A stretch of 64,000 bases of DNA from an uncultured Victivallales bacterium (GTDB taxonomy: Bacteria; Verrucomicrobiota; Lentisphaeria; Victivallales; GWF2-45-14): the NCBI GenBank assembly GCA_964651145.1, contig CAZYVR010000001.1:6839-70838 (forward strand), given 5' to 3'. This document shows positions 13,979 to 60,766 of this stretch, piece by piece. Position 1 is the stretch's first letter. Every line of letters begins with the position of its first letter. Below the pieces are notes generated by a model that saw only the letters and a program-made list of their open reading frames with translations, was not told where the DNA came from and ran no database searches. Both the position numbers and the translations under genes were made by a program.

Positions 13979-14791
13979 TCAGTCGTCGTCCGTCACTTCC
14001 AGGACAATGTCAAGCTGCATGGCTCCCTTAGGCGGTTTGGGCAAAGCTGAAAGTTCAGCGAGAAGGCGTTTGACAGATATATCCATTGCGGAAATGCCGC
14101 TAGATTTTATGATCTTTGTCGACTTCACTCGTCCAGCCGCGTCAATCGAAACCTGCACTGTCACTTCCGGGGTTCTGCCGCCCAATTCGGTTTTGAGAGG
14201 CTGTTTCCAAATTTTGTAAATATATCCGGAAACGACTTCATTATATTCCATTTCGGATTGGGACATGCGCGCGCCAGGCTCGGAGACAGTCACTGTCGAC
14301 TGCAAACTTTTCAAACGGCTGGCAATATTTTTCGCCGAAACTTTAGGTCGAGCTTTCTGAACCTTGCCTTTTACCTCGTTTTTTGAGATTTTTATCTTGG
14401 AGATATCCAGAGGTTTCCATTTTGGTTTTTTCGGCTTGGGCTTTTTGGGCTTCGGCTTGGGCTTCGGCTTGGGCTTCGGCTTGGTTTTCGGCTTCGGCTT
14501 TTGAGGTGGTTTCGGCCTTTCGGCTTTTGGCGGAGTTGGAGCAGGCGGAGCAGCGGAAGGCGCATTGGCGCTTTGCTCAGGCATGGGCTTAACCAGATTT
14601 ACCTGGATGCTTTTTGGACGCTTCGGCTTAAGCCACTGTATCATAAAATATACGCAAAGCGGAAGAATGACCAGAACGACATGCGCAATGATTACAATAA
14701 TTAAAATGCGCTTTTTTAAGCGTCTGCTTATCAGGCGCTTCTCTTCGTCTTTATTATGAAAATCAGAATAAAACTGTTTTTCTTTGCTCAT
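13979..14791 (-). CDS. tonB: TonB-like energy transducer
   Basis: Single N-terminal TM (ILIIVIIAHVVLVILPLCVYF). Pro/Lys-rich spacer PKPKTKPKPKPKPKPKPKKPKPKKPK, encoded by tandem ggcttN repeats at about 14431-14500. C-terminal TonB-like domain. The start overlaps the exbD stop (ATGA, 14788-14791). Confidence 0.8.
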   Translation of the reverse strand: MSKEKQFYSDFHNKDEEKRLISRRLKKRILIIVIIAHVVLVILPLCVYFMIQWLKPKRPKSIQVNLVKPMPEQSANAPSAAPPAPTPPKAERPKPPQKPKPKTKPKPKPKPKPKPKKPKPKKPKWKPLDISKIKISKNEVKGKVQKARPKVSAKNIASRLKSLQSTVTVSEPGARMSQSEMEYNEVVSGYIYKIWKQPLKTELGGRTPEVTVQVSIDAAGRVKSTKIIKSSGISAMDISVKRLLAELSALPKPPKGAMQLDIVLEVTDDD

Positions 14792-20878: not shown

Positions 20879-21739
20879 TCACTTTGCGCTTTTAGCCGGT
20901 GTTGAATTAGGGGCAGGCACTTTTTCTGTTTTCTTGGCCGGTTGTTTTTTCGGAGTAGACTTTGCCTTTGCTTTTGCCTTTGCCTTTGCCTTTTTTGCGG
21001 CAGCTTCGCTCTTAAGCCTTTCCTGGTCTTGTTTTTCCAGCTTTTTTAATTTTCGAATGGCATAATAGCCTATTTTCTTTTTGAACTTCTTGGACAACTC
21101 TTTATACTTCAGAAACTTAACTCCGCCATCATAAGCTATGTCTATCCCTCTCGGGTTCATATTGGTTATTTTTGCTTTTTTATAGGTTTTATTCTTTGTT
21201 TTTATGGTAAACAGAGAATTTTCCCTGAGCTTGTCGCTTTTTGAAATTTCTGTTTTCAAATCGCTTTTTGCCATTTCGCGTTCTCTCTCGGCTTTCAGAT
21301 TTGCAAGCAATTTTTTCTTCAAAGCATTTCTTTTTTCTTCCGTTGCCTTGCGTCTTTTTTCAGCGTCAAGCTTCTTTTTTTTAGCCGCCTTGCGTCTTTT
21401 TTCAGCGTCAAGCTTTCTCTTTTTAGCCGCTTTCTTTTTATTTATCTCCGCTTGTTTCTTTTTATTTATCTCCGCTTGTTTCTTTTTTTCCTCATTGTCT
21501 TTTTTGGCTTGTTCGCGCATCTGATCTTCCTTTGCCAGCCTCATGCGCTCGCCTTCTATATATGCTTTATGAAAGAAAAAAGCTATGACCCCGGCTATCA
21601 AAAGAATAATGATAAGATAGCCCATATTGCGGTTTTTCTTCTTCTTCGCAAATTCTTTAGCCATAGCCTCAGCCAAAGCGGCCTGCTCAGCAGGACTTTG
21701 CTCTGCTTCTTTATCTTTTTTATCCAAACTCAAACTCAT
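20879..21739 (-). CDS. lysine-rich, tandem-repeat, single-pass membrane protein of unknown function
   Basis: One TM (MGYLIIILLIAGVIAFFF), then a K/E/A coiled low-complexity region with exact peptide repeats (KKQAEINK x2, AAKK[R/K]KLDAEKRRK x2, (KA)6). A short beta-rich C-terminal segment follows (FTIKTKNKTYKKAKITNMNPRGIDIAYDGGVKFLKY). No family recognised. Confidence 0.6.
   Translation of the reverse strand: MSLSLDKKDKEAEQSPAEQAALAEAMAKEFAKKKKNRNMGYLIIILLIAGVIAFFFHKAYIEGERMRLAKEDQMREQAKKDNEEKKKQAEINKKKQAEINKKKAAKKRKLDAEKRRKAAKKKKLDAEKRRKATEEKRNALKKKLLANLKAEREREMAKSDLKTEISKSDKLRENSLFTIKTKNKTYKKAKITNMNPRGIDIAYDGGVKFLKYKELSKKFKKKIGYYAIRKLKKLEKQDQERLKSEAAAKKAKAKAKAKAKSTPKKQPAKKTEKVPAPNSTPAKSAK
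20961..20994. repeat. hexanucleotide tandem repeat (gcYttt)n inside the Lys-rich gene
   Basis: tttgcctttgcttttgcctttgcctttgcctttt read directly. It encodes AKAKAKAKAKAK on the minus strand. Confidence 0.9.
21345..21489. repeat. two adjacent coding tandem repeats (42 bp x2, 24 bp x2.4)
   Basis: The 42-bp unit gccttgcgtcttttttcagcgtcaagctt... occupies 21345-21386 and 21387-21428. The 24-bp unit tttctttttatttatctccgcttg occupies 21431-21454 and 21455-21478, with a partial third copy. Confidence 0.9.
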
Positions 21740-24125: not shown

Positions 24126-24707
24126 ATGAATATAAATATCTCAAGCGAAGTACTGGAAATGAACGACAAGCACATTGTCAAATTTATGAAAAACAATGAC
24201 ACTAAAAAACTTTTAAAATCATTCAATGGAAGAACTGATATTGGGTTTAGAAACGGAATGATTGTTTTGCTCAATAAAGAGGCTGAAATAAAAGAAAAAA
24301 CAAAACTGGGAATACAAATTCCAATAAGAAGCGAAAAAAGAAACATAAACACAGAGCATTGCATAAAATGCACGATGAAACATCTTGCGGCGGCAATCGT
24401 TGAAATGGGCGAACTCCGCAAAGGTTACTGGAATACAGACCATGAGATTTATTGCGCTGGAAACCTTAACGAAGCATCCGAGCAAATAGACGCTTATTCA
24501 AATAAAACAGCCATGACAATAAGAGGCATAAGGATAGATATTTTTGAGACAAAAAAAGAAGTGACTGAGCAGCACATTCAAGATGCAAAAGACATATTTT
24601 GGGATGTGAAAGAAATGCTGAAGAATCCGCCAGAATTGAAACCCAAAAAAGAGTGCGGATGCAATAAACGTAAAAAAACTGGAGATAATGAAAAACGCGT
24701 CTCTTGA
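24126..24707 (+). CDS. hypothetical protein (193 aa), third gene of the orphan trio
   Basis: SD-like aaaagga upstream, 21 nt after the previous stop. Contains HCIKCTMKHLAAAIVEMGELRKGYWNTDHEIYCAGNLNEASEQ and a basic C-terminus with CGCNKRKK. No family recognised. Confidence 0.55.
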   Translation: MNINISSEVLEMNDKHIVKFMKNNDTKKLLKSFNGRTDIGFRNGMIVLLNKEAEIKEKTKLGIQIPIRSEKRNINTEHCIKCTMKHLAAAIVEMGELRKGYWNTDHEIYCAGNLNEASEQIDAYSNKTAMTIRGIRIDIFETKKEVTEQHIQDAKDIFWDVKEMLKNPPELKPKKECGCNKRKKTGDNEKRVS

Positions 24708-24723
24708 ATAGACTTCTTAATTT

Positions 24724-24918
24724 TGATGGCTCCGTCAAAAGTCCTGAAAAATAAAAAAGCCGACGGAGTCGGAATAAAAACCGGACTATGTCAGGACGGC
24801 ATCCAGCGGCGGAATCGCTGGTCGGCAAAGCCGAAAGCTGTTGGCGCATAAAAGATTGCGCGACAGCAAGCTTTATTTCATTGCAGCGGCAGCTCCCTGG
24901 ACTTTTGGCGGCTTCGTC
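24724..24918 (+). mobile_element. MITE-like structured repeat, copy A (archetype)
   Basis: 195 bp with no ORF. Terminal inverted repeats CCGTCAAAAGTCC (24732-24744) and GGACTTTTGGCGG (24899-24911). Flanked by direct TAATTT (24718-24723 and 24919-24924). Interior hairpins at 24760-24772, 24781-24795, 24803-24821 and 24823-24833. Related copies occur elsewhere in the window. Confidence 0.6.
24747..24795 (-). terminator. tandem intrinsic terminators for the mscS-gmhB operon, supplied by repeat copy A
   Basis: Read on the minus strand: cctgacatagtccgg followed by tttttat, then ccgactccgtcgg followed by cttttttattttt. They lie 146-194 nt downstream of the gmhB-like stop (24941). Confidence 0.55.
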
Positions 24919-24940
24919 TAATTTCCAGAGCAGGCGCCAA

Positions 24941-25513
24941 TTAGCTGGCTTGAGAATTGCCTTTAAGGAGTAGTTTAACGGCTTCTTTTATGTTTTGGGC
25001 TATGATTGCCCCTTTTGCTTCTGGCGAAGCGGCTTCCTGTTCGCCATGCCCAGTCTTGACTAGAACAGTCTGCTTGCATCCCGCGTTTTCAGCCGCTTTA
25101 AGGTCGCTTAATTTGTCGCCTATCATAAAGGATTCGGCTAGATTTATAGAGTGGTCTTTTGCGGCTTGCAAGATCATTCCAGGCTCCGGCTTGCGGCAGC
25201 GGCATTCCAAAGAATATTTTGAAATGTTGCCATCTTTGTGGTGTGGACAATAATAGTACGCGCTGATCGCGGCTCCTGATCCGGCAAGGAGCTCGTCTAT
25301 TCTGGCGTTGACTTTTTTTACGCTTTCCTCGTCAAACATTCCTCTGGCCACGCCGGATTGATTGGATGCTACTATTGCTAAATAGCCGTTTTCTTCAAGC
25401 AGCTTGATGGCGTCTGAGGCTCCGGGGATAAGCCTGACTTTGTCTGGCGAATCTATATAATGCTCTTCTTCGATGAGCACTCCGTCTCTGTCCAGAAAAC
25501 ATGCTTTTTTCAT
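24941..25513 (-). CDS. gmhB: HAD-IIIA phosphatase, D,D-heptose 1,7-bisphosphate phosphatase-like
   Basis: MKKACFLDRDGVLIEE (DxDGT/V motif), SNQSGVARG, CRKPEPGM and MIGDKLSDLKAAENAG. The ATG at 25513 is preferred to the TTG at 25534. Confidence 0.75.
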   Translation of the reverse strand: MKKACFLDRDGVLIEEEHYIDSPDKVRLIPGASDAIKLLEENGYLAIVASNQSGVARGMFDEESVKKVNARIDELLAGSGAAISAYYYCPHHKDGNISKYSLECRCRKPEPGMILQAAKDHSINLAESFMIGDKLSDLKAAENAGCKQTVLVKTGHGEQEAASPEAKGAIIAQNIKEAVKLLLKGNSQAS

Positions 25514-25550
25514 TATGTCAAAAACTTTCAACAAGTTTGCGTTTTATTGG

Positions 25551-26486
25551 CTAAGATATTGCTGATTCAGTCGCGGCTTTGGATTTTTTTTCATTCATAT
25601 TATCGTAAAAGCGTTGCGTTGGGTATGCAAAATCAATGTCATTGTATTTGGCAAATTCTTCAAGGATGCTTTCCCACATGGCTTCTTCGCTTCCCCTGCG
25701 ATTGCGCGGCTGGACAAGGTATCGCATTGTCAGCAAAACTCCTGATTCAGTCACCGACGTGTAAACAATAGGCGTGAGATTTTTATAGAATATCAGATAT
25801 TTTTTGCTGGCTTCTTTTATCCTTTTTTCAGCCGGGCCTGAAAAATCATCTGAATTTCTTTGAGCAATTTCAAGAAGAACTTTTTTGCCTTTTTTCCAAT
25901 TGCTTTCAAAAGTCACAAGCACTGGCACTTCGTTCCAGATAAACTTGAAGCCTTCTGTATAGTTTATAATGTTGTCAGTAAGAATCTTGCTGTTTGACAC
26001 ATGAATAACCCGTCCTGTGCTCTGATCCGCATGGACCCATTTGCCAACTTCATTCAATGAGAATTTAAAGGGGCTTATATCAATGACATCTCCTTTTATC
26101 TCGTTGTCTATCTCAATGCGGTCGCCTATTTTAAACGGTCTGCGCCATAAAATAAAAAGCCATCCCGCCAGACTTTTAATCAAGTCCTGAAGCGCAATTG
26201 TAAGACCGGCGGCAATAAGTCCAAGCACATAAACCACCGATTCAGTCGCTTCAACCCATATTCTGGCAAGAGCCAGGAGAAGGATAATCAGATATGCGTA
26301 TCCTATACCCTTGCGCCAACGGTAACGCGCTTGCGGGTCGCTTGTTTTGCGCCAGATAAGCCTTTTGAAAAGAGTTTTTAATAGCCATAAGAGCAAAATG
26401 GCAATCAGGGAAACAAGCATTCTGGCTTGCCACTCCGAATCTAAGCCGGTAATCGCTTGTACCCAAATTCTAATGTCTTCTATCAT
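25551..26486 (-). CDS. mechanosensitive ion channel (MscS) family protein
   Basis: Three N-terminal TMs, then RPFKIGDRIEIDNEIKGDVIDISPFKFSL (MscS beta-domain signature). Confidence 0.8.
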   Translation of the reverse strand: MIEDIRIWVQAITGLDSEWQARMLVSLIAILLLWLLKTLFKRLIWRKTSDPQARYRWRKGIGYAYLIILLLALARIWVEATESVVYVLGLIAAGLTIALQDLIKSLAGWLFILWRRPFKIGDRIEIDNEIKGDVIDISPFKFSLNEVGKWVHADQSTGRVIHVSNSKILTDNIINYTEGFKFIWNEVPVLVTFESNWKKGKKVLLEIAQRNSDDFSGPAEKRIKEASKKYLIFYKNLTPIVYTSVTESGVLLTMRYLVQPRNRRGSEEAMWESILEEFAKYNDIDFAYPTQRFYDNMNEKKSKAATESAIS

Positions 26487-26592
26487 AATTTAACAAATGT
26501 CCTCTATGCTGCCTCTACAATATTGGACTTTCCCCAAGATTCAAGACTGGAGAAAGGGAACAGGAAAAATATTACCCTCACTTCAGTAATGC

Positions 26593-26841
26593 GACGAAGC
26601 CGCCAAAAGTCCCGGGAGCTGTCGCTGCAACGAAATAAAGCTTGTTGTCGCTTCGCGCCCCAACAAGCCGCAGGCTTTTAACGCGCCATGCGCGCTGTCG
26701 CGCAATCTTTTATATGCCAACAGCTTTCGGCTTTGCCGACCAGCGGTTCCGCCGCTGGATGGCGTCCGGACAAAGTCCGGTTTTTATTCCGACTCCGTCG
26801 GCTTTTTTAAAGTTTTAAGACTTTTAAAACTCAGTTTATCC
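26593..26841 (-). mobile_element. MITE-like structured repeat, copy B (inverted relative to A, with a ~48-nt internal insertion)
   Basis: The reverse complement of copy A aligns end to end: gacgaagccgccaaaagtcc...cgcgcaatctttta...ccagcggttccgccgctgg...ccggacaaagtccggtttttattccgactccgtcggctttttt. Flanked by direct AATGC (26588-26592 and 26842-26846). The right 58 nt overlap the pdxB 3' end. Confidence 0.6.
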
Positions 26842-27932
26842 AATGCTTCCTGAAGCGCTTGCGGAGCGTTAACCACTGTAAATGCCGGGAATTCTCTTCT
26901 TAACGGATAATCGCCGCGCTGTTTCTCAAATGTTTCCGGGTAATTGCGCAGGCGGGCGTCGTCATCCAAAGCGTTATAGCTTTGGGACACGGCTTTCAGC
27001 AGAATTTCCTCCTTTGAGCCGGAAGCAGACAAAAGATTTATTTCCGTTTCATCTGGAAGAGGCACATTTTCCGGCTTCCAGTCATCCAGGCCGAGTTTGA
27101 GAAATTTAGAAATTGCGTTGACGCTCATTTTTGTTCCATTGGCTTTGCCGTCCGCGGAGTAGCCCGCAATATGCGGCGTGGCTATGTCTGTCAATCCAAG
27201 CAGTTCCCTGTTTATGTTCGGCTCGTTTTCCCAGACATCAACTGCTGCGCCGGAAATAAGTTTGTCTTTTATTGCGGAAATCAGGGCTCCGGTTTCCGCC
27301 ACTTCACCTCTTGAGGAATTTATAAAAAACGGACGCTTGTTCAGGGATGCGAAAAATGATGAGTCGGCAAGATGAAATGTTTTGTCTTCGCCATCTCTGT
27401 TGAGCGGGACATGCATTGTGATAAAGTCCGCCTCTGAGCGAATATCTTTCAGAGAGCAAAATCCTTCAGGCCCTTCTTTCCTTGCGCGCGGAGGGTCGGA
27501 AAGCAATACGCGCATTCCAAGAGCTTCGCCGACTTTCGCAACCTTGCTTCCCACATTGCCAACGCCTACAACGCCAAGGGTTTTGTCTGTTAGGCTGATA
27601 TTGTTTTTCACGGCAAGATTCAGCAGGACTGATGTTATGTATTGCGCCACAGATGACGAATTGCAGCCCGGCGCGTTTGTCCACGCTATGCCGTTTGAGT
27701 CGCAGTACGCTCCGTCTATATGGTCGTGTCCTATTGTGGCCGAAGCTATAATTTTCACGGACGATCCGGCAAGCAGCTTTTCATTGCATTTTGTCCGCGT
27801 CCTGGTTATCAGCGCGTCAGCGTCTTTGACTATTTCAGGTGTAGTCTCTTTGCCTGGCATGTAAACGACTTCCGCAACGCCTTCAAGCGCCCCTCTTAAA
27901 AACGGTATCTTGTCATCCGCTATTATTTTCAT
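26784..27932 (-). CDS. pdxB: 4-phosphoerythronate dehydrogenase (D-2-hydroxyacid dehydrogenase family)
   Basis: MKIIADDKIPFLRGALEGVAEVVYMPGKE (PdxB-like N-terminus). NAD-binding LGVVGVGNVGSKV, catalytic HIAGYS, and a PdxB-type C-terminal extension. The last ~19 codons lie inside repeat copy B. Confidence 0.8.
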   Translation of the reverse strand: MKIIADDKIPFLRGALEGVAEVVYMPGKETTPEIVKDADALITRTRTKCNEKLLAGSSVKIIASATIGHDHIDGAYCDSNGIAWTNAPGCNSSSVAQYITSVLLNLAVKNNISLTDKTLGVVGVGNVGSKVAKVGEALGMRVLLSDPPRARKEGPEGFCSLKDIRSEADFITMHVPLNRDGEDKTFHLADSSFFASLNKRPFFINSSRGEVAETGALISAIKDKLISGAAVDVWENEPNINRELLGLTDIATPHIAGYSADGKANGTKMSVNAISKFLKLGLDDWKPENVPLPDETEINLLSASGSKEEILLKAVSQSYNALDDDARLRNYPETFEKQRGDYPLRREFPAFTVVNAPQALQEALDKLSFKSLKTLKKPTESE

Positions 27933-28141
27933 TTTTTTCTTTCTTATATTACTGTATCAAATATTCCGAAAAATAAACTTTCTCAATAACGCCTTTAGCA
28001 TTTATCTCTTCAAGCATTTGGTTTGCGACTGCCTTTATTTCTTTCGCAAACATTTGAAATTTTAAATATATCATTTAAGAGGCTAAACGCCAAAAAAATA
28101 GTTAAAAAGTAGCCATCTGCACAGCCGCACCAACATAATAG

Positions 28142-28260
28142 GTTTAAAAAGTGGCTTTGCCACCGGCTTTGCAGACCAGCGATTCCGCCGCTGGATAGCG
28201 TCAGGACAAAGTCCGGTTTTTATTCCGACTCTGTCGGCTTTTCTTTTTGAGAGAGCCATT
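28142..28260 (-). repeat. MITE-like repeat, copy C (partial, same orientation as B, alternative arm)
   Basis: gtttaaaaagtggctttgccaccggctttgcagaccagcgattccgccgctggatagcgtcaggacaaagtccggtttttattccgactctgtcggcttttc. The three hairpins are shared with copies A and B. The other arm matches the short form at 40450-40470. Confidence 0.8.
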
Positions 28261-28373
28261 CATTTTCTCATTCAACGCAAAATTGCATAAAAAAAACTTC
28301 TTTCCTTTTTAAATAGGACATTTTCGGCTATATTTATAATGTATTTGGGAGTTAAAATTTCAGGAGAAGGAAT

Positions 28374-28706
28374 ATGGGGTCAGAATCACCAGACAGCATT
28401 AGGGGAATATCCGATTATCTTCGCGAAGAATTCGATCTTGACAAAGAAGACGTAGAGGAAATGCTTGATGAATTTATCAAAAATATAAACTCGCTTGTAC
28501 AGACAGGCAAAGAACAAATTGAGAAATCTTCCTGGGAGGACTTGAAAAGAACAGGCCATTCTGTAAAGGGAGCCGCCGCAAATATTGGCGCAAATTTTAT
28601 TTCAAAAGCGGGGAAACAGCTCGAAGAACATGCTTTGTCAGCAAATAAAAGCGAATGCGAATTATTTGTGGAGCAAATAGCCAAAGGGCTTGACTGCCTG
28701 AGATAA
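28374..28706 (+). CDS. stand-alone Hpt (histidine phosphotransfer) domain protein
   Basis: Phosphorylatable His motif RTGHSVKGAAANIGA within a ~110-aa helical protein. The stop overlaps the nth start (TAATG). Confidence 0.75.
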   Translation: MGSESPDSIRGISDYLREEFDLDKEDVEEMLDEFIKNINSLVQTGKEQIEKSSWEDLKRTGHSVKGAAANIGANFISKAGKQLEEHALSANKSECELFVEQIAKGLDCLR

Positions 28707-40408: not shown

Positions 40409-40470
40409 GAATGGTCGGAACCGCCAAAAGTCCTTAAAAATAAAAGAAACCGGCAAAGCCACTTTTAAAC
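40409..40470 (+). repeat. MITE-like repeat, short form (copy E)
   Basis: gaatggtcggaaccgccaaaagtccttaaaaataaaagaaaccggcaaagccacttttaaac. The left arm of A/D is joined directly to the alternative arm seen in copy C, and the hairpin core is absent. Confidence 0.7.
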
Positions 40471-40493
40471 TCACTTCGTGGGGGCGCCGACGT

Positions 40494-53189: not shown

Positions 53190-53267
53190 TATTTAAACTC
53201 CTCCGCATTAATTAAAATATTCGCGCCCAACTATATAACAACGTTGCAAAAAAGCCAACTCTTGGAT

Positions 53268-53347
53268 TAAAAAAAGTTGAATTTTCATGTTGACAGGCAA
53301 GGGATGGAAGAGTAAAAAGTCCTGAAAAAGAAAAGACACCGGCAAAG
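53268..53347 (+). repeat. composite repeat, copy F: A-run/TTGACAG module plus short-form MITE-like arm
   Basis: ttaaaaaaagttgaattttcatgttgacaggcaagg (53268-53302) matches 56342-56378. gatgg...aaaagtcctgaaaaagaaaagacaccggcaaag (53303-53347) matches copy E up to ccggcaaag and then diverges. Confidence 0.75.
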
Positions 53348-53359
53348 ATAGTATGAGAA

Positions 53360-53441
53360 GGTCAATCTCCTCGCATGTGATATAATATAATCATATCGCT
53401 TTGACATTAACGCACTTTAAGTGCAAAAAAGGAGATTGACC
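53360..53441 (+). promoter_or_regulatory. structured leader of the IS110-type transposase gene (SD-sequestering inverted repeat)
   Basis: ggtcaatctcct (53360-53371) is perfectly complementary to aggagattgacc (53430-53441), which covers the SD aaggag (53429-53434) directly before ATG 53442. An inner hairpin gcact-tta-agtgc lies at 53412-53424, and TATAAT at 53381-53386. Confidence 0.5.
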
Positions 53442-54255
53442 ATGAGTAAATGTAACACAGGAATGGTAATAGGCATGGACATGAGCGACAAAAACAGTGA
53501 GATTTGCGTTATTGACCAAGACTGCAAAGTTTTGGAAAGGAAAAAGGTGGCAAATACTTTTGATGGATTGGAATATTATTTTTCGGCTTTCAAGGAGCCT
53601 TCTTAAGGTTCTTATCGCAATGGAAGCAGGGACTCATTTGCCTTGGGTAAGCATCAAACTGTCCGAAATGTGCTTTAATGTTTTGGTTGGCAACAGCCGC
53701 AAGTTGCGGGCTATCTGGGCCTCTGAAAGAAAAAGCGACAGACGTGATGCTGAAATGCTTGCTAGAATAGCTCAATTTGACAAAAACTTATTCTATCCGA
53801 TTAAACATAGAAATACAGAAAGTCAGGCGATGCTTGCCGTTTTGAAAGCGCGAGATATCATGGTTGGAAGCAGAAAATTAATTTTGTCTATCCGTGGAAT
53901 GCTTAAAAGCATGGGAATTGCCATTTCTTCCTGTAGCGCCAGATCGTTTGCTAAAAAAGCTTTTGAAAAAATGCCTTCTGAATACCTTTTTGCCTTTAAG
54001 GACAATCTTCAAGCAGTAGCGTTTCTGAGCAAAAAAATAGATTTTTGTGATAAAAAAGTAGAAAGGCTTTGCACTAAAAAATATCCTGAAACAGAGTTGT
54101 TGAGGAACATAAAAGGAGTTGGGCCAATAACTGTATTAAGTTTTGTTTTAACAATTGAAGATCCTGATCGCTTCAATAAAAGTCGTGATATAGGCGCGTT
54201 TCTTGGTCTAGCTCCCAAGCGCGATCAATCGGGCAAAACAGACAAAAAGTTGGGA
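53442..54255 (+). pseudogene. IS110-family transposase, frameshifted and 3'-truncated (IS remnant)
   Basis: N-terminus MSKCNTGMVIGMDMSDKNSEICVID (DEDD-type start). Frame 1 stops at 53604-53606, and similarity continues in another frame (VLIAMEAGTHLPW...KSDRRDAEMLARI...LLRNIKGVGPITVLSFVLTIEDPDRFNKSRDIGAFLGLAPKRDQSGKTDKKLG). The expected C-terminal ~100 aa are missing after about 54255. Confidence 0.8.
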
Positions 54256-54394
54256 TTTCCGCATTTACGACCGGTGCGAATAAATGAACCGGACATGAAA
54301 ATCCTGCTTTCATCCAGTTTTTTTATTCTTGCGTTAATGCGTTTTTTTTAGCATTTCTGTTGAAATTTTGTCCTTCACTCTCAATTCCTCTCAG

Positions 54395-54425
54395 ATAATG
54401 TCAAACAAAAATCTATCGCGAAGAA
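54395..54425 (+). repeat. 31-bp direct repeat, copy 1
   Basis: ataatgtcaaacaaaaatctatcgcgaagaa is 29/31 identical to 56291-56321. The minus strand reads ...tttgTTTGACAttat (contains TTGACA). Confidence 0.85.
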
Positions 54426-54765: not shown

Positions 54766-55932
54766 ATGAAAATCGACGATTATGCCATAAGCATGGCCAG
54801 CAGCCATGATTTGACCAAATATTCACACAAGGAAGAAACTCTTGTCCAATGGACAGGAGGAGAAACAGCTCAGCAGGCCGCCTACGAAACCCCGGTGAGT
54901 GTAAAGCTTTCCTCGCAAGCCCTTGAAAATCTTCAAGAGGAACATTCTTCTTTGCCCATAAGAGAAATTGGAAATGGCGGAGCAAGCTTGAAGCTCTCGC
55001 CTCTCTCGCTGAAGTATATGATTCCCAAAATTAAGGCTGAGAAGGCAGAAGCAAATTCCTTTTTGTCTGAAATGGACAAATTGAAAATCCAATTGATTGA
55101 AGAACTGCTTTACCGCGCAACTGGCAAAAAAATAAAGATTAAAATATTTGATCCATCTAAGTCAAAAAAAGAAAGCTCTTCAGCCTCATTAAGTGATGAG
55201 GCCAGCTCTGAAAAGTTTCAGAAAGCATTAAAGATCGGAGAAGGCGAAAAGGAAGAGCAGCGAGTTGGCTGGGGCTTGGATTATCACTATCTGGAAGAAC
55301 ATTACGAAAGCGAAAAGACCAGTTTTGACGCGCAAGGCGTGGTCAAGACAAAAGATGGCCGGGAAATTCATCTTGATGTAAGCGTTAACATGAGCAGGGA
55401 ATTTTACACTCGAAAAGAAATTTCACTAAAAGCCGGCGATGCCCTCATAGATCCCCTTGTCATCAACTTTAACGGCAATCTGGCTGAATTGAGTGACAAT
55501 GATAAAATTGAGTTTGATCTGGATATGGATGGCAAAAAGGATCAGATATCGCGCCTTGCATCTGACAGCGGGTATCTTGCTTTGGATAAAAATAATGATG
55601 GTAAAATAAATGACGGAGGCGAGCTTTTTGGCCCCGAATCAGGCAATGGGTTTGACGACTTGGCCAAATATGACGAAGATGGCAATGGATGGATTGACGA
55701 AAATGACAGTGTTTTTGACAAATTGCGTGTATGGAATAAAGATTCGAGCGGAAAAGAAGTTCTGATGGCGCTTGGACAAACTGGAGTCGGCGCTATATAC
55801 CTGGGGCGTGAAAAAACTGAATTTGCCATAACTTCCAATGAAAATTTGAATGGTCAACTGCGGGAAAGCGGCATTTATTTGAAAGAAAACGGAATAGTGG
55901 GGACTATCCAGGAGCTAGACTTAGTTGTATAA
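54766..55932 (+). CDS. calcium-binding-motif protein (EF-hand/RTX-adhesin-like DxDxDG loops), unknown function
   Basis: SD ggaggag lies 7 nt upstream. The C-terminal half carries DPLVINFNG..., FDLDMDGKKDQI, LDKNNDGKINDGGELFG and YDEDGNGWIDENDSVFDKLRVW. This resembles the Ca-binding module found in large RTX-type exoproteins. No signal peptide is seen. Confidence 0.6.
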   Translation: MKIDDYAISMASSHDLTKYSHKEETLVQWTGGETAQQAAYETPVSVKLSSQALENLQEEHSSLPIREIGNGGASLKLSPLSLKYMIPKIKAEKAEANSFLSEMDKLKIQLIEELLYRATGKKIKIKIFDPSKSKKESSSASLSDEASSEKFQKALKIGEGEKEEQRVGWGLDYHYLEEHYESEKTSFDAQGVVKTKDGREIHLDVSVNMSREFYTRKEISLKAGDALIDPLVINFNGNLAELSDNDKIEFDLDMDGKKDQISRLASDSGYLALDKNNDGKINDGGELFGPESGNGFDDLAKYDEDGNGWIDENDSVFDKLRVWNKDSSGKEVLMALGQTGVGAIYLGREKTEFAITSNENLNGQLRESGIYLKENGIVGTIQELDLVV

Positions 55933-56290
55933 TTGGCCTATAATGTAATTATAAGCCAATCGCTCTGTGGAGGATAAAATTATATAAATATTAATTCAGC
56001 ATATGGAGTGACTCAAAGCGCGTTGAATGACAATATGAGCAAAATGGATGAAATGTTCGAAGGTCTTATCGGCATGAGATAAATTTAAGTGGATTTCTGT
56101 TAATTTGTAAAATTTCAAAAAGATGTCAGATAAACCAACCTGAAATTTTTGAACTGTCTGGTTTATTCTTGAAGCCTTGCGCAAAAACACAGGACTCCAG
56201 GAAGCTGCGATATTGCCGCCTTTGCCGACATTTATGCTGTCTTTCACGCCCAATTCTTCCTAGTTAATATGATATAAGTATAAAAATCAT

Positions 56291-56321
56291 ATAATGTCAA
56301 GCAAAAATCGATCGCGAAGAA
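56291..56321 (+). repeat. 31-bp direct repeat, copy 2
   Basis: ataatgtcaagcaaaaatcgatcgcgaagaa. The minus strand gives TTGACA (56300-56295) with a TA-rich -10-like stretch about 14-17 nt further on. Confidence 0.85.
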
Positions 56322-56341: not shown

Positions 56342-56480
56342 TTAAAAAAAGTTAAGTTTTTATGTTGACAGACAATGCGATGGCTCCGCCAAAAGTCTTG
56401 AAAAATAAAAGACCCCGCTAGAGGCGGCATAAAAACCGGATTTCATCCGGGCTTGATCCAACGAAGAATGCGTTGGCAGC
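56342..56480 (+). repeat. composite repeat, copy D: A-run/TTGACAG module plus diverged MITE-like element
   Basis: ttaaaaaaagttaagtttttatgttgacagacaatgc (56342-56378), then gatggctccgccaaaagtcttgaaaaataaaag. Three hairpins follow (56415-56427, 56436-56450, 56458-56476) in the same order and spacing as in copy A, but with different stem sequences. Confidence 0.75.
56401..56450 (-). terminator. tandem intrinsic terminators for the 56501-59965 hydrolase gene, supplied by repeat copy D
   Basis: On the minus strand: ccggatgaaatccgg followed by tttttat, then ccgcctctagcgg followed by ggtcttttattttt. They lie 51-100 nt downstream of the stop at 56501. Confidence 0.6.
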
Positions 56481-56500
56481 CACCGCCTGCGTTGATTTTT

Positions 56501-60031: not shown

Positions 60032-60766
60032 TTACCTTTTTGCTCGAAAATACCAGTCAACGTCTCCATTTTTGCCGCTTAGAAGCTCGGATTGAGACAT
60101 CCGTTTGACATGTCCGTCAGCCCAGGCCGCGTTTATGCCGCCGGAGTGCCTGTTCCCAATGCATGGGTTTGGACACCAAGTGTTTCCGTTTGACGATGAA
60201 TTTACTATATAACTATAATCCCAATAATTGGTCGCGCCGCTAAGCCAGTCTGTTGTGTCTCCGCAAATCAATGACTCAGATGGCATTGTCACATTGGAAA
60301 TTTTCATTCTTTTGCGGAATTCAGCAGAAGTGTCGCTGTATCCGAATGCTCTGGTTCCACTGTTAAAACTGCAATTCCAGCCATAGCCTGACCTATATGA
60401 CATTGGAACATTGTCAGGCGGAACAAAAGACAAACAATGAAATGTTCCAGTGTTCAATTTTTCGTAATCGGTGACAGAACTGGCATTTACTCCCAGATAT
60501 TCCGATATCTCTAATTTCCAATTGTTCATATTTGTCCCTAAGCAGCTGATTGGCATCCAGCCGTCATAGTCATTTGCGTACATTGCAATTCCTTTTTCGA
60601 TCTGCGAAAGATTGGATGCGCAGGATATTTCTTTGGCTTTTCCCCTGGCGCGGTTTAAGGCAGGCAGCAACATGCTGGCCAAAATGGCTATTATGGCGAT
60701 TACAACGAGCAATTCGATGAGTGTAAAAGGCAAAGAAATGCGTTTTATGGCTGCTTTTGAAAACAT
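60032..60766 (-). CDS. prepilin-type N-terminal cleavage/methylation domain protein, H-X9-DG (DUF1559-like) family
   Basis: [45 protein letters not shown]-terminal [16 protein letters not shown] gives an exact H-X9-DG. It lies directly upstream of the hydrolase gene on the same strand. Confidence 0.9.

Follow-up and report, generated by a model that had tools for sequence, protein, structure and literature searches.

The element at 24725-24918 of the window (the whole 64,000-nt stretch of DNA that we analysed) is very probably, at roughly 85%, one copy of a previously undescribed MITE family, carried by an uncultured Antarctic-lake bacterium that probably belongs to the Lentisphaerota. The family is well bounded, and both its sequence and its occurrence in this lineage are new, while the kind of element, a genome parasite, is itself well known; within the literature searched, no MITE was reported in Lentisphaerota. 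A sequence-only reading of this DNA had already proposed a MITE or other non-autonomous transposable element, and that proposal is now supported by additional copies, a terminal inverted repeat (TIR) of 20 bp and 6-bp target-site duplications (TSDs) that are specific to each locus.

Prokaryotic MITEs are defined as elements of less than 500 bp with TIRs of 4-30 bp, direct repeats in the younger copies, an intergenic location and transcripts that form stable stem-loops, and the features of the 244-nt family match this published definition (PMC10969869). Both the canonical element (~244 nt) and the copy at 24725-24918 (copy A, 194 nt) lie below ~500 bp. Copy A had been described as lacking coding capacity, which was borne out in that no open reading frame is conserved across copies: in the alignments the frame is shifted by indels between copies, and the sole start codon arises from a GATGG variant of the TIR, which reads GACGG in most copies. 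A 41-codon ORF in copy A was considered as a small peptide and rejected for want of conservation across copies.

Structure of the element and its copies in the window

Copy A and its ends were delimited as follows.

24725-24918 (+), MITE copy A, a 194-nt variant, alignable with canonical copies over its full length apart from an internal gap
24725-24744 (+), left TIR of copy A, GATGGCTCCGTCAAAAGTCC, family consensus
24899-24918 (+), right TIR of copy A, GGACTTTTGGCGGCTTCGTC, family consensus
24718-24723, left copy of the TSD pair, TAATTT, with an extra T at 24724 between the hexamer and copy A
24919-24924, right copy of the TSD pair, TAATTT, abutting copy A

The earlier description of this copy was correct except in three details, namely the length of the TIR, a 1-nt offset on the left and the status of copy A as a deletion variant. 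The 13-nt inverted repeat that it gave (CCGTCAAAAGTCC at 24732-24744 and GGACTTTTGGCGG at 24899-24911, 12/13 complementary) is present, but the TIR measures 20 bp across the family. Both TAATTT hexamers are there and the right one abuts the element, but the left one is offset by T24724, so that of the span 24724-24918 the right end stands and the start becomes 24725. The four hairpins and the longer imperfect stem that it had named are all present in the sequence. Relative to the canonical element, copy A has lost the 50 nt that lie between a pair of GCGACA direct repeats.

We aligned ~30 near-full copies, from which the canonical length of ~244 nt and the consensus ends were obtained; the TIR is a perfect inverted repeat of 20 bp, GAYGGmkCCGCCAAAAGTCC / GGACTTTTGGCGGCTCCGTC. 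The middle of the element exists as two alternative modules, ...CGGCAAAGCCGAAAGCTGTTGGC...GCCGACAGC or GGTGGCAAAGCCACTTTTAAACCCACTTCGTGGG, the second of which is found in the window's short forms (28142-28260 and 40415-40488). The deletion derivatives of the family include copy A, the short forms and the alternative middle module. Among 20 copies, pairwise identity had a median of 83% (range 70% to 98%). At one metagenome locus (L070:2081-2295) the alternative hairpin module contains three tandem 12-nt units (GCCGGTGGCGGA).

The 64-kb window contains six copies, found by blastn (E-values as low as 1e-49), a repeat finder and a profile HMM built from 20 copies. All five copies that had been named in addition to copy A were recovered by these methods.

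26593-26826 (-), MITE copy B, interior canonical, right TIR present (26612-26593), 3' flank GCATTA, left TIR missing
28142-28260 (-), MITE copy C, degenerate, part of the 5' TIR region deleted, alternative middle module GGTGGCAAAGCCAC-TTTTT
40415-40488 (+), short form with left TIR, A-rich module and alternative hairpin module, right end degenerate (E 8e-7)
53303-53348 (+), MITE fragment, left end only, cut after CCGGCAAAG by an IS insertion
56379-56482 (+), older, diverged and 3'-truncated copy whose first three hairpins are retained via compensatory changes

The profile HMM matched copy B at 26593-26825 (-) with E 1e-78, the core of copy C at 28164-28248 (-) with E 3e-26 and the diverged copy at 56380-56482 (+) with E 4e-18. 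Its match to the fragment at 53303 (53315-53347, +, E 0.11) is weak alone, and blastn supports it. The copies lie on both the + and the - strand, and all of those in the window are intergenic or at gene ends, as had been noted from the sequence.

Copy B is fused to the 3' end of pdxB (4-phosphoerythronate dehydrogenase) and overlaps the final 10 codons of its reading frame. The segment GATAAACTGAGTTTTAAA encodes the native, conserved PdxB C-terminus DKLSFK; therefore the native stop has been lost and the frame runs 10 codons into the MITE, now stopping at 26786-26784 within copy B (26784-26830 of the window, - strand). The extension reads ...SLKTLKKPTESE, whereas homologues finish at ...LSFK plus two residues. 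A version of copy B with a mutated left TIR and a GCATTG TSD was rejected, the stretch concerned being the native pdxB C-terminus.

Other repeats were seen in the window. A local duplication joins 53267-53341 and 56342-56417 (80% identity) and comprises a flank with a TTGACA box together with the MITE 5' part; a second duplicated segment of 35 nt (54391-54425 and 56287-56321) is 91% identical, and a 388-aa ORF with an SPM-domain match (54766-55932) lies between the locally duplicated segments. The window encodes several DUF1559 proteins with a prepilin-type N-terminus. A 119-nt inverted repeat (1296-1414 and 60609-60727, 74% identity) is formed by the stretches that encode the N-terminal parts of two of them, whose ORFs (1257-1988, +, and 60032-60766, -) carry prepilin-type N-methylation motifs and are paralogous genes, not a mobile element. 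Tandem repeats occur in frame inside two further ORFs, with a 12-nt period (TTGGGCTTCGGC) at 14445-14504 in ORF 13979-14791 (-) and with 24- and 42-nt periods at 21327-21489 in ORF 20879-21739 (-).

Copies beyond the window and their target sites

We scanned metagenome contigs with the 20-mer pattern CCGYCAAAAGTCYTKAAAAA and obtained 76 loci, of which ~55 proved on inspection to be true members, so that many additional copies exist. About 45 copies came from JGI metagenome Ga0075121 (3300005932) and 12 from Ga0207996 (3300025586), the latter being among the metagenomes of an Antarctic lake study (PMC8542988). Contigs in both 3300005932 and 3300025586 encode exactly the MscS-like protein of the window, and contig L089, compared base by base, matches the window; the metagenome copies therefore come from the same population or from close relatives. 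The best named relatives of the window's PdxB are from Lentisphaerae/Victivallales, at 63-65% identity, and together with the DUF1559 proteins they point to a host that is probably Lentisphaerota. Short-read contigs of the organism terminate inside the repeat, as is expected of a multicopy element. A search of 185,579 reference genomes for an exact 20-mer of the hairpin region gave two chance matches only, each within coding sequence of an unrelated MAG. The whole element had no match in plasmids, phages or viral contigs, and the TIR query matched there only at chance level (E=3).

The flanks of the metagenome loci are unrelated to each other. Gene orientation around the copies is unconstrained (11 same/same, 7 convergent, 7 divergent and 4 opposite/opposite), and a bias of the element relative to neighbouring genes was rejected, nothing being significant.

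For the TSDs, we compared the 6 nt abutting each end of 36 non-redundant copies with both ends. An exact 6-bp TSD was present in 15 of the 36 (17 when an offset of 1-2 nt was allowed), while in 2000 shuffled pairings the mean was 0.72 and the maximum 4. There were 14 different TSD sequences among the loci: TTACTC, GACATG, TAAGGC, TAGTGA, GGATTA, TTTCTG, AAATCA, CATTGC, TCACTA, TAATTG, TAATTA and TAATTT (copy A), together with the recurrent TAATGC (twice) and GCATTA (three times). A perfect TSD is absent from about half of the copies. The flanking repeats suspected from copy A thus recur at many other copies, with a sequence that differs by locus. Duplications specific to each locus are the signature of transposition by staggered cuts and not of site-specific recombination or gene duplication. 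TAATGC and GCATTA are reverse complements, so the preferred target is roughly palindromic; insertion favours AT-rich hexamers of the TAATGC/GCATTA type. No common hairpin was seen in the reconstructed pre-insertion sites.

A longer motif, A(7-9)-CTGAC-GC(A/C)TT(A/G), abuts one end of the element, either end, at at least 6 independent loci (L014:1137-1152, L044:495-510, L045:2008-2023, L071:4592-4607, L075:~700-716 and L009:~685-705). Its exact core occurs nowhere else in the ~560 kb of window and loci, and its last 6 nt are the TSD. Because the TSD falls inside the motif, an outer extension of the MITE by A-run-CTGAC-GCATTA is not supported; the motif may be an extended target preference, or something else.

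Three loci (L060:2882-3198, L066:505-823 and L083:3683-3996) hold head-to-tail pairs with only the duplicated 6-bp hexamer between the two elements, as in ...GGCGGCTCCGTC CATTGC GACTGCTCCGCC... Such pairs could reflect repeated insertion at the same hexamer, or they could be a dimer or junction form like that of copy-out-paste-in insertion sequences.

Conserved hairpins and the adjoining IS1111-type element

Both strands of the element fold well, with RNA fold z-scores of -4.5 for copy A sense, -2.5 for copy A antisense and -6.2 for a canonical copy. RNAalifold, applied to 20 copies, gave 11 helices and 60 pairs, with 97% of cells paired and changes on both sides at 16 of the 60 pairs. Values as high as those observed arose in none of 500 shuffles, and pairing fell to 25-42% when the partners were slid by 1-3 columns. 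Covariation is seen, for example, in the cggc-aaa-gccg hairpin, which occurs as GGC/GCC, GCT/AGC and GCC/GGC, and in the 3' half, where CTTGTTG/CAACAAG stands against CTGTT/AACAG. Some of the compensatory changes were inherited by subfamilies, and the number of independent events is therefore smaller than that of cells. The covariation shows a constraint on source copies, not on every insertion. There is a weak strand asymmetry, with sporadic G.U pairs in 26 cells of the sense strand and A.C pairs in 15.

On the antisense strand both 5' hairpins are followed by a T-run (CCGGACAAAGTCCGG-TTTTTATT and CCGACTCCGTCGG-CTTTTTTATT), and the hairpins with their U-runs are terminator-like (CCGGACnnnGUCCGG-U5 and CCGACnnnGUCGG-CU6). 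The A-runs that give these T-runs are invariant in 20/20 aligned copies and lie outside the search pattern. The sense strand has a stem, GCTTGTTG...CAACAAGC, followed by TTTATTTCGTT, a U-rich tail (UUUAUUU). A terminator scan reported terminator-like sites in copies A, B and C and in one canonical copy. The two antisense sites with hairpin and T-run and the one sense hairpin with a U-rich tail look like intrinsic terminators, and from this pattern match we hypothesize that the conserved hairpins may have a terminator-like function. A bolder proposal, which we regard as speculative and rather unlikely, is that the multi-hairpin core would be a selected, portable, bidirectional transcript-end cassette, used genome-wide by the host to terminate or stabilise intergenic transcripts, and that the hairpins with a GGCAAAG loop would also be multicopy landing sites for RNA-guided IS1111-type elements.

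One such element adjoins a copy in the window.

53349-54351 (+), decayed IS1111-type (IS110-family) IS, left end ATAGTATGAGAAGGT, right end missing

Its DEDD recombinase gene starts at ATG 53442, carries a frameshift near 53600 and has a truncated C-terminus; the stretch 53442-54351 encodes the Pfam domains DEDD_Tnp_IS110 and Transposase_20. Its relatives include L006, L007, L092 and L094; intact ones, at 55-68% identity, are ~1.45 kb long. Their left end measures 93 nt and their right end ~290 nt, and they have the subterminal repeats ATGAGAAGGT/ACCTTCTCAT and an AG core. IS1111 elements have this layout, and their right end encodes the bridge RNA (PMC11208160). Two short right-end segments of each relative match its own left and right flanks (GGCTGAGATAG and GCTCAGG in L006, CCAAGA in L092, TGTTTTC in L007), as the guide of a bridge or seek RNA would. 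Homology with the relatives begins at 53349, directly after CCGGCAAAG in the MITE hairpin, and the IS was therefore inserted into a MITE copy; its right end was lost after that insertion. Insertion into multicopy repeats, REPs among them, is known for IS110-family elements (PMC11208160).

Other explanations, mobilisation and known repeats

The strong fold z-scores, the 16 covarying pairs and the somewhat greater number of sense G.U than A.C cells would also be expected if the repeats were structured small-RNA genes or cis-regulatory RNAs spread by duplication, with the so-called TIR as a closing helix. We consider this very unlikely, given 6-bp duplications that are specific to each locus, random orientation relative to genes, many truncated or deleted copies and two strands that fold almost equally well. 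Nor is there a common promoter, the TTGACA box ahead of 53303 and 56379 being part of a duplicated flank. Rfam 15 gave no hits in the whole window at gathering thresholds, so that no known structured RNA matches; an E-value scan of 24600-28400 returned only chance-level matches (E>2), none aligning with the whole element, and no tRNA is present. That one copy directly adjoins the left end of the IS could suggest that the repeats are not mobile elements in their own right and represent relics of the IS1111-type element at 53349 or its attachment sites, a reading to which we give almost no credence: among the IS relatives there is no homology to the left of ATAGTATGAG (53349), three relatives have mutually different flanks, which match the guides in their own right ends, and an IS110-family gene was found beside none of the ~55 other copies. 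A role for the MITE as a bridge-RNA gene or IS end was likewise rejected, the IS boundary lying to the right of the MITE fragment and the guides of the relatives in their right ends.

The sequence-only reading had also allowed for a REP-like family, that is, short extragenic palindromes of the REP/BIME type spread by a RAYT (IS200/IS605-like) tyrosine transposase. The copies are indeed intergenic, hairpin-rich and GC-rich relative to their flanks, and one serves as an IS110-family target, as REPs do. The alternative is nonetheless unsupported, because an architecture of TIR plus TSD differs from that of REP/BIME, and we judge it highly improbable. The unit is a composite of ~244 bp with 20-bp TIRs and 6-bp TSDs, whereas REPs spread without a TSD. 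REP/BIME elements are single imperfect palindromes of 20-40 nt with a conserved tetranucleotide head; here there is no conserved head of the GTAG type, and no RAYT gene was seen among the ORFs examined in the window and loci. REP/BIME repeats hit by IS621 and ISPpu9/10 are comparable in being multicopy intergenic hairpin repeats used as IS110-family insertion sites (PMC11208160). Unlike them, the repeat here is a MITE, and any targeting of it is putative: a single insertion was seen, of an IS that has lost its guide-encoding right end.

The MITE reading calls for a transposase acting in trans. In the window and the 76 loci, we treated any two TIR-like sites with a spacing of 0.45-6 kb as a candidate pair, and the ORFs between them were ordinary genes (solute-binding protein, histidine kinase, amidohydrolase, epimerase and cysteine synthase). 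The earlier statement that no cognate transposase is visible in the window agrees with this search. Neither the window and the 76 loci nor the plasmids, phages, viral contigs and reference genomes searched yielded an autonomous element that shares the TIRs. Duplications of 6 bp are known in a few IS groups, for example IS481, IS1634 and ISDol1-like elements. A transposase encoded elsewhere, most likely of the DDE type, would bind the TIRs, cut the target with a 6-bp stagger and insert the element, and gap repair would then produce the duplication; the conserved hairpins would either be required by source copies or be tolerated or selected as transcript-end structures. The copy A site is filled in the three other assemblies reaching the junction (L088 covers the whole element, L086 and L087 the left end and L089 the right end), and no empty site was seen among them; any recent mobility is therefore putative. 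The closest PdxB relative has different neighbouring genes and is not syntenic with the window.

The family resembles known prokaryotic MITEs, such as Correia/NEMIS of Neisseria, QMITE1/2 of Coxiella and MITEAba12, in being non-coding and shorter than 500 bp, with TIRs of 20-30 bp, short TSDs, dozens or more intergenic copies, predicted transcripts with very stable stem-loops, and deletion subtypes (PMC10969869). It differs from them in that it has no sequence similarity to anything in the collections searched, its TSD is 6 bp with a TAATGC/GCATTA preference, and its parent IS was not found. Like SPRITE, BOX and RUP of Streptococcus pneumoniae, it is a small interspersed repeat of modular structure. 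SPRITE carries hairpins that resemble Rho-independent terminators, as the hairpins with T-runs do here, and the pneumococcal repeats cluster and insert beside or into each other, as in the head-to-tail dimers of L060, L066 and L083. The present family has both TIR and TSD, unlike BOX and SPRITE, in which neither is clear, and it has a conserved multi-hairpin core that is much longer. Among the MITEs named above, Correia duplicates TA, and the duplication of QMITE2 is 7-9 bp.

The element explains the break-up of the organism's short-read assemblies into contigs of 1-2 kb at MITE sites, and it flags annotation artefacts such as the pdxB frame that continues into the repeat. For the Lentisphaerota it supplies a clean MITE family with a TIR, a TSD, a target preference and subfamilies, and the 20-bp TIR and 6-bp TSD are a handle for locating the missing transposase. 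The covarying hairpins, together with the IS1111 insertion, raise the possibility that the MITE may be reused as a transcript-end module and as a target of RNA-guided IS elements.
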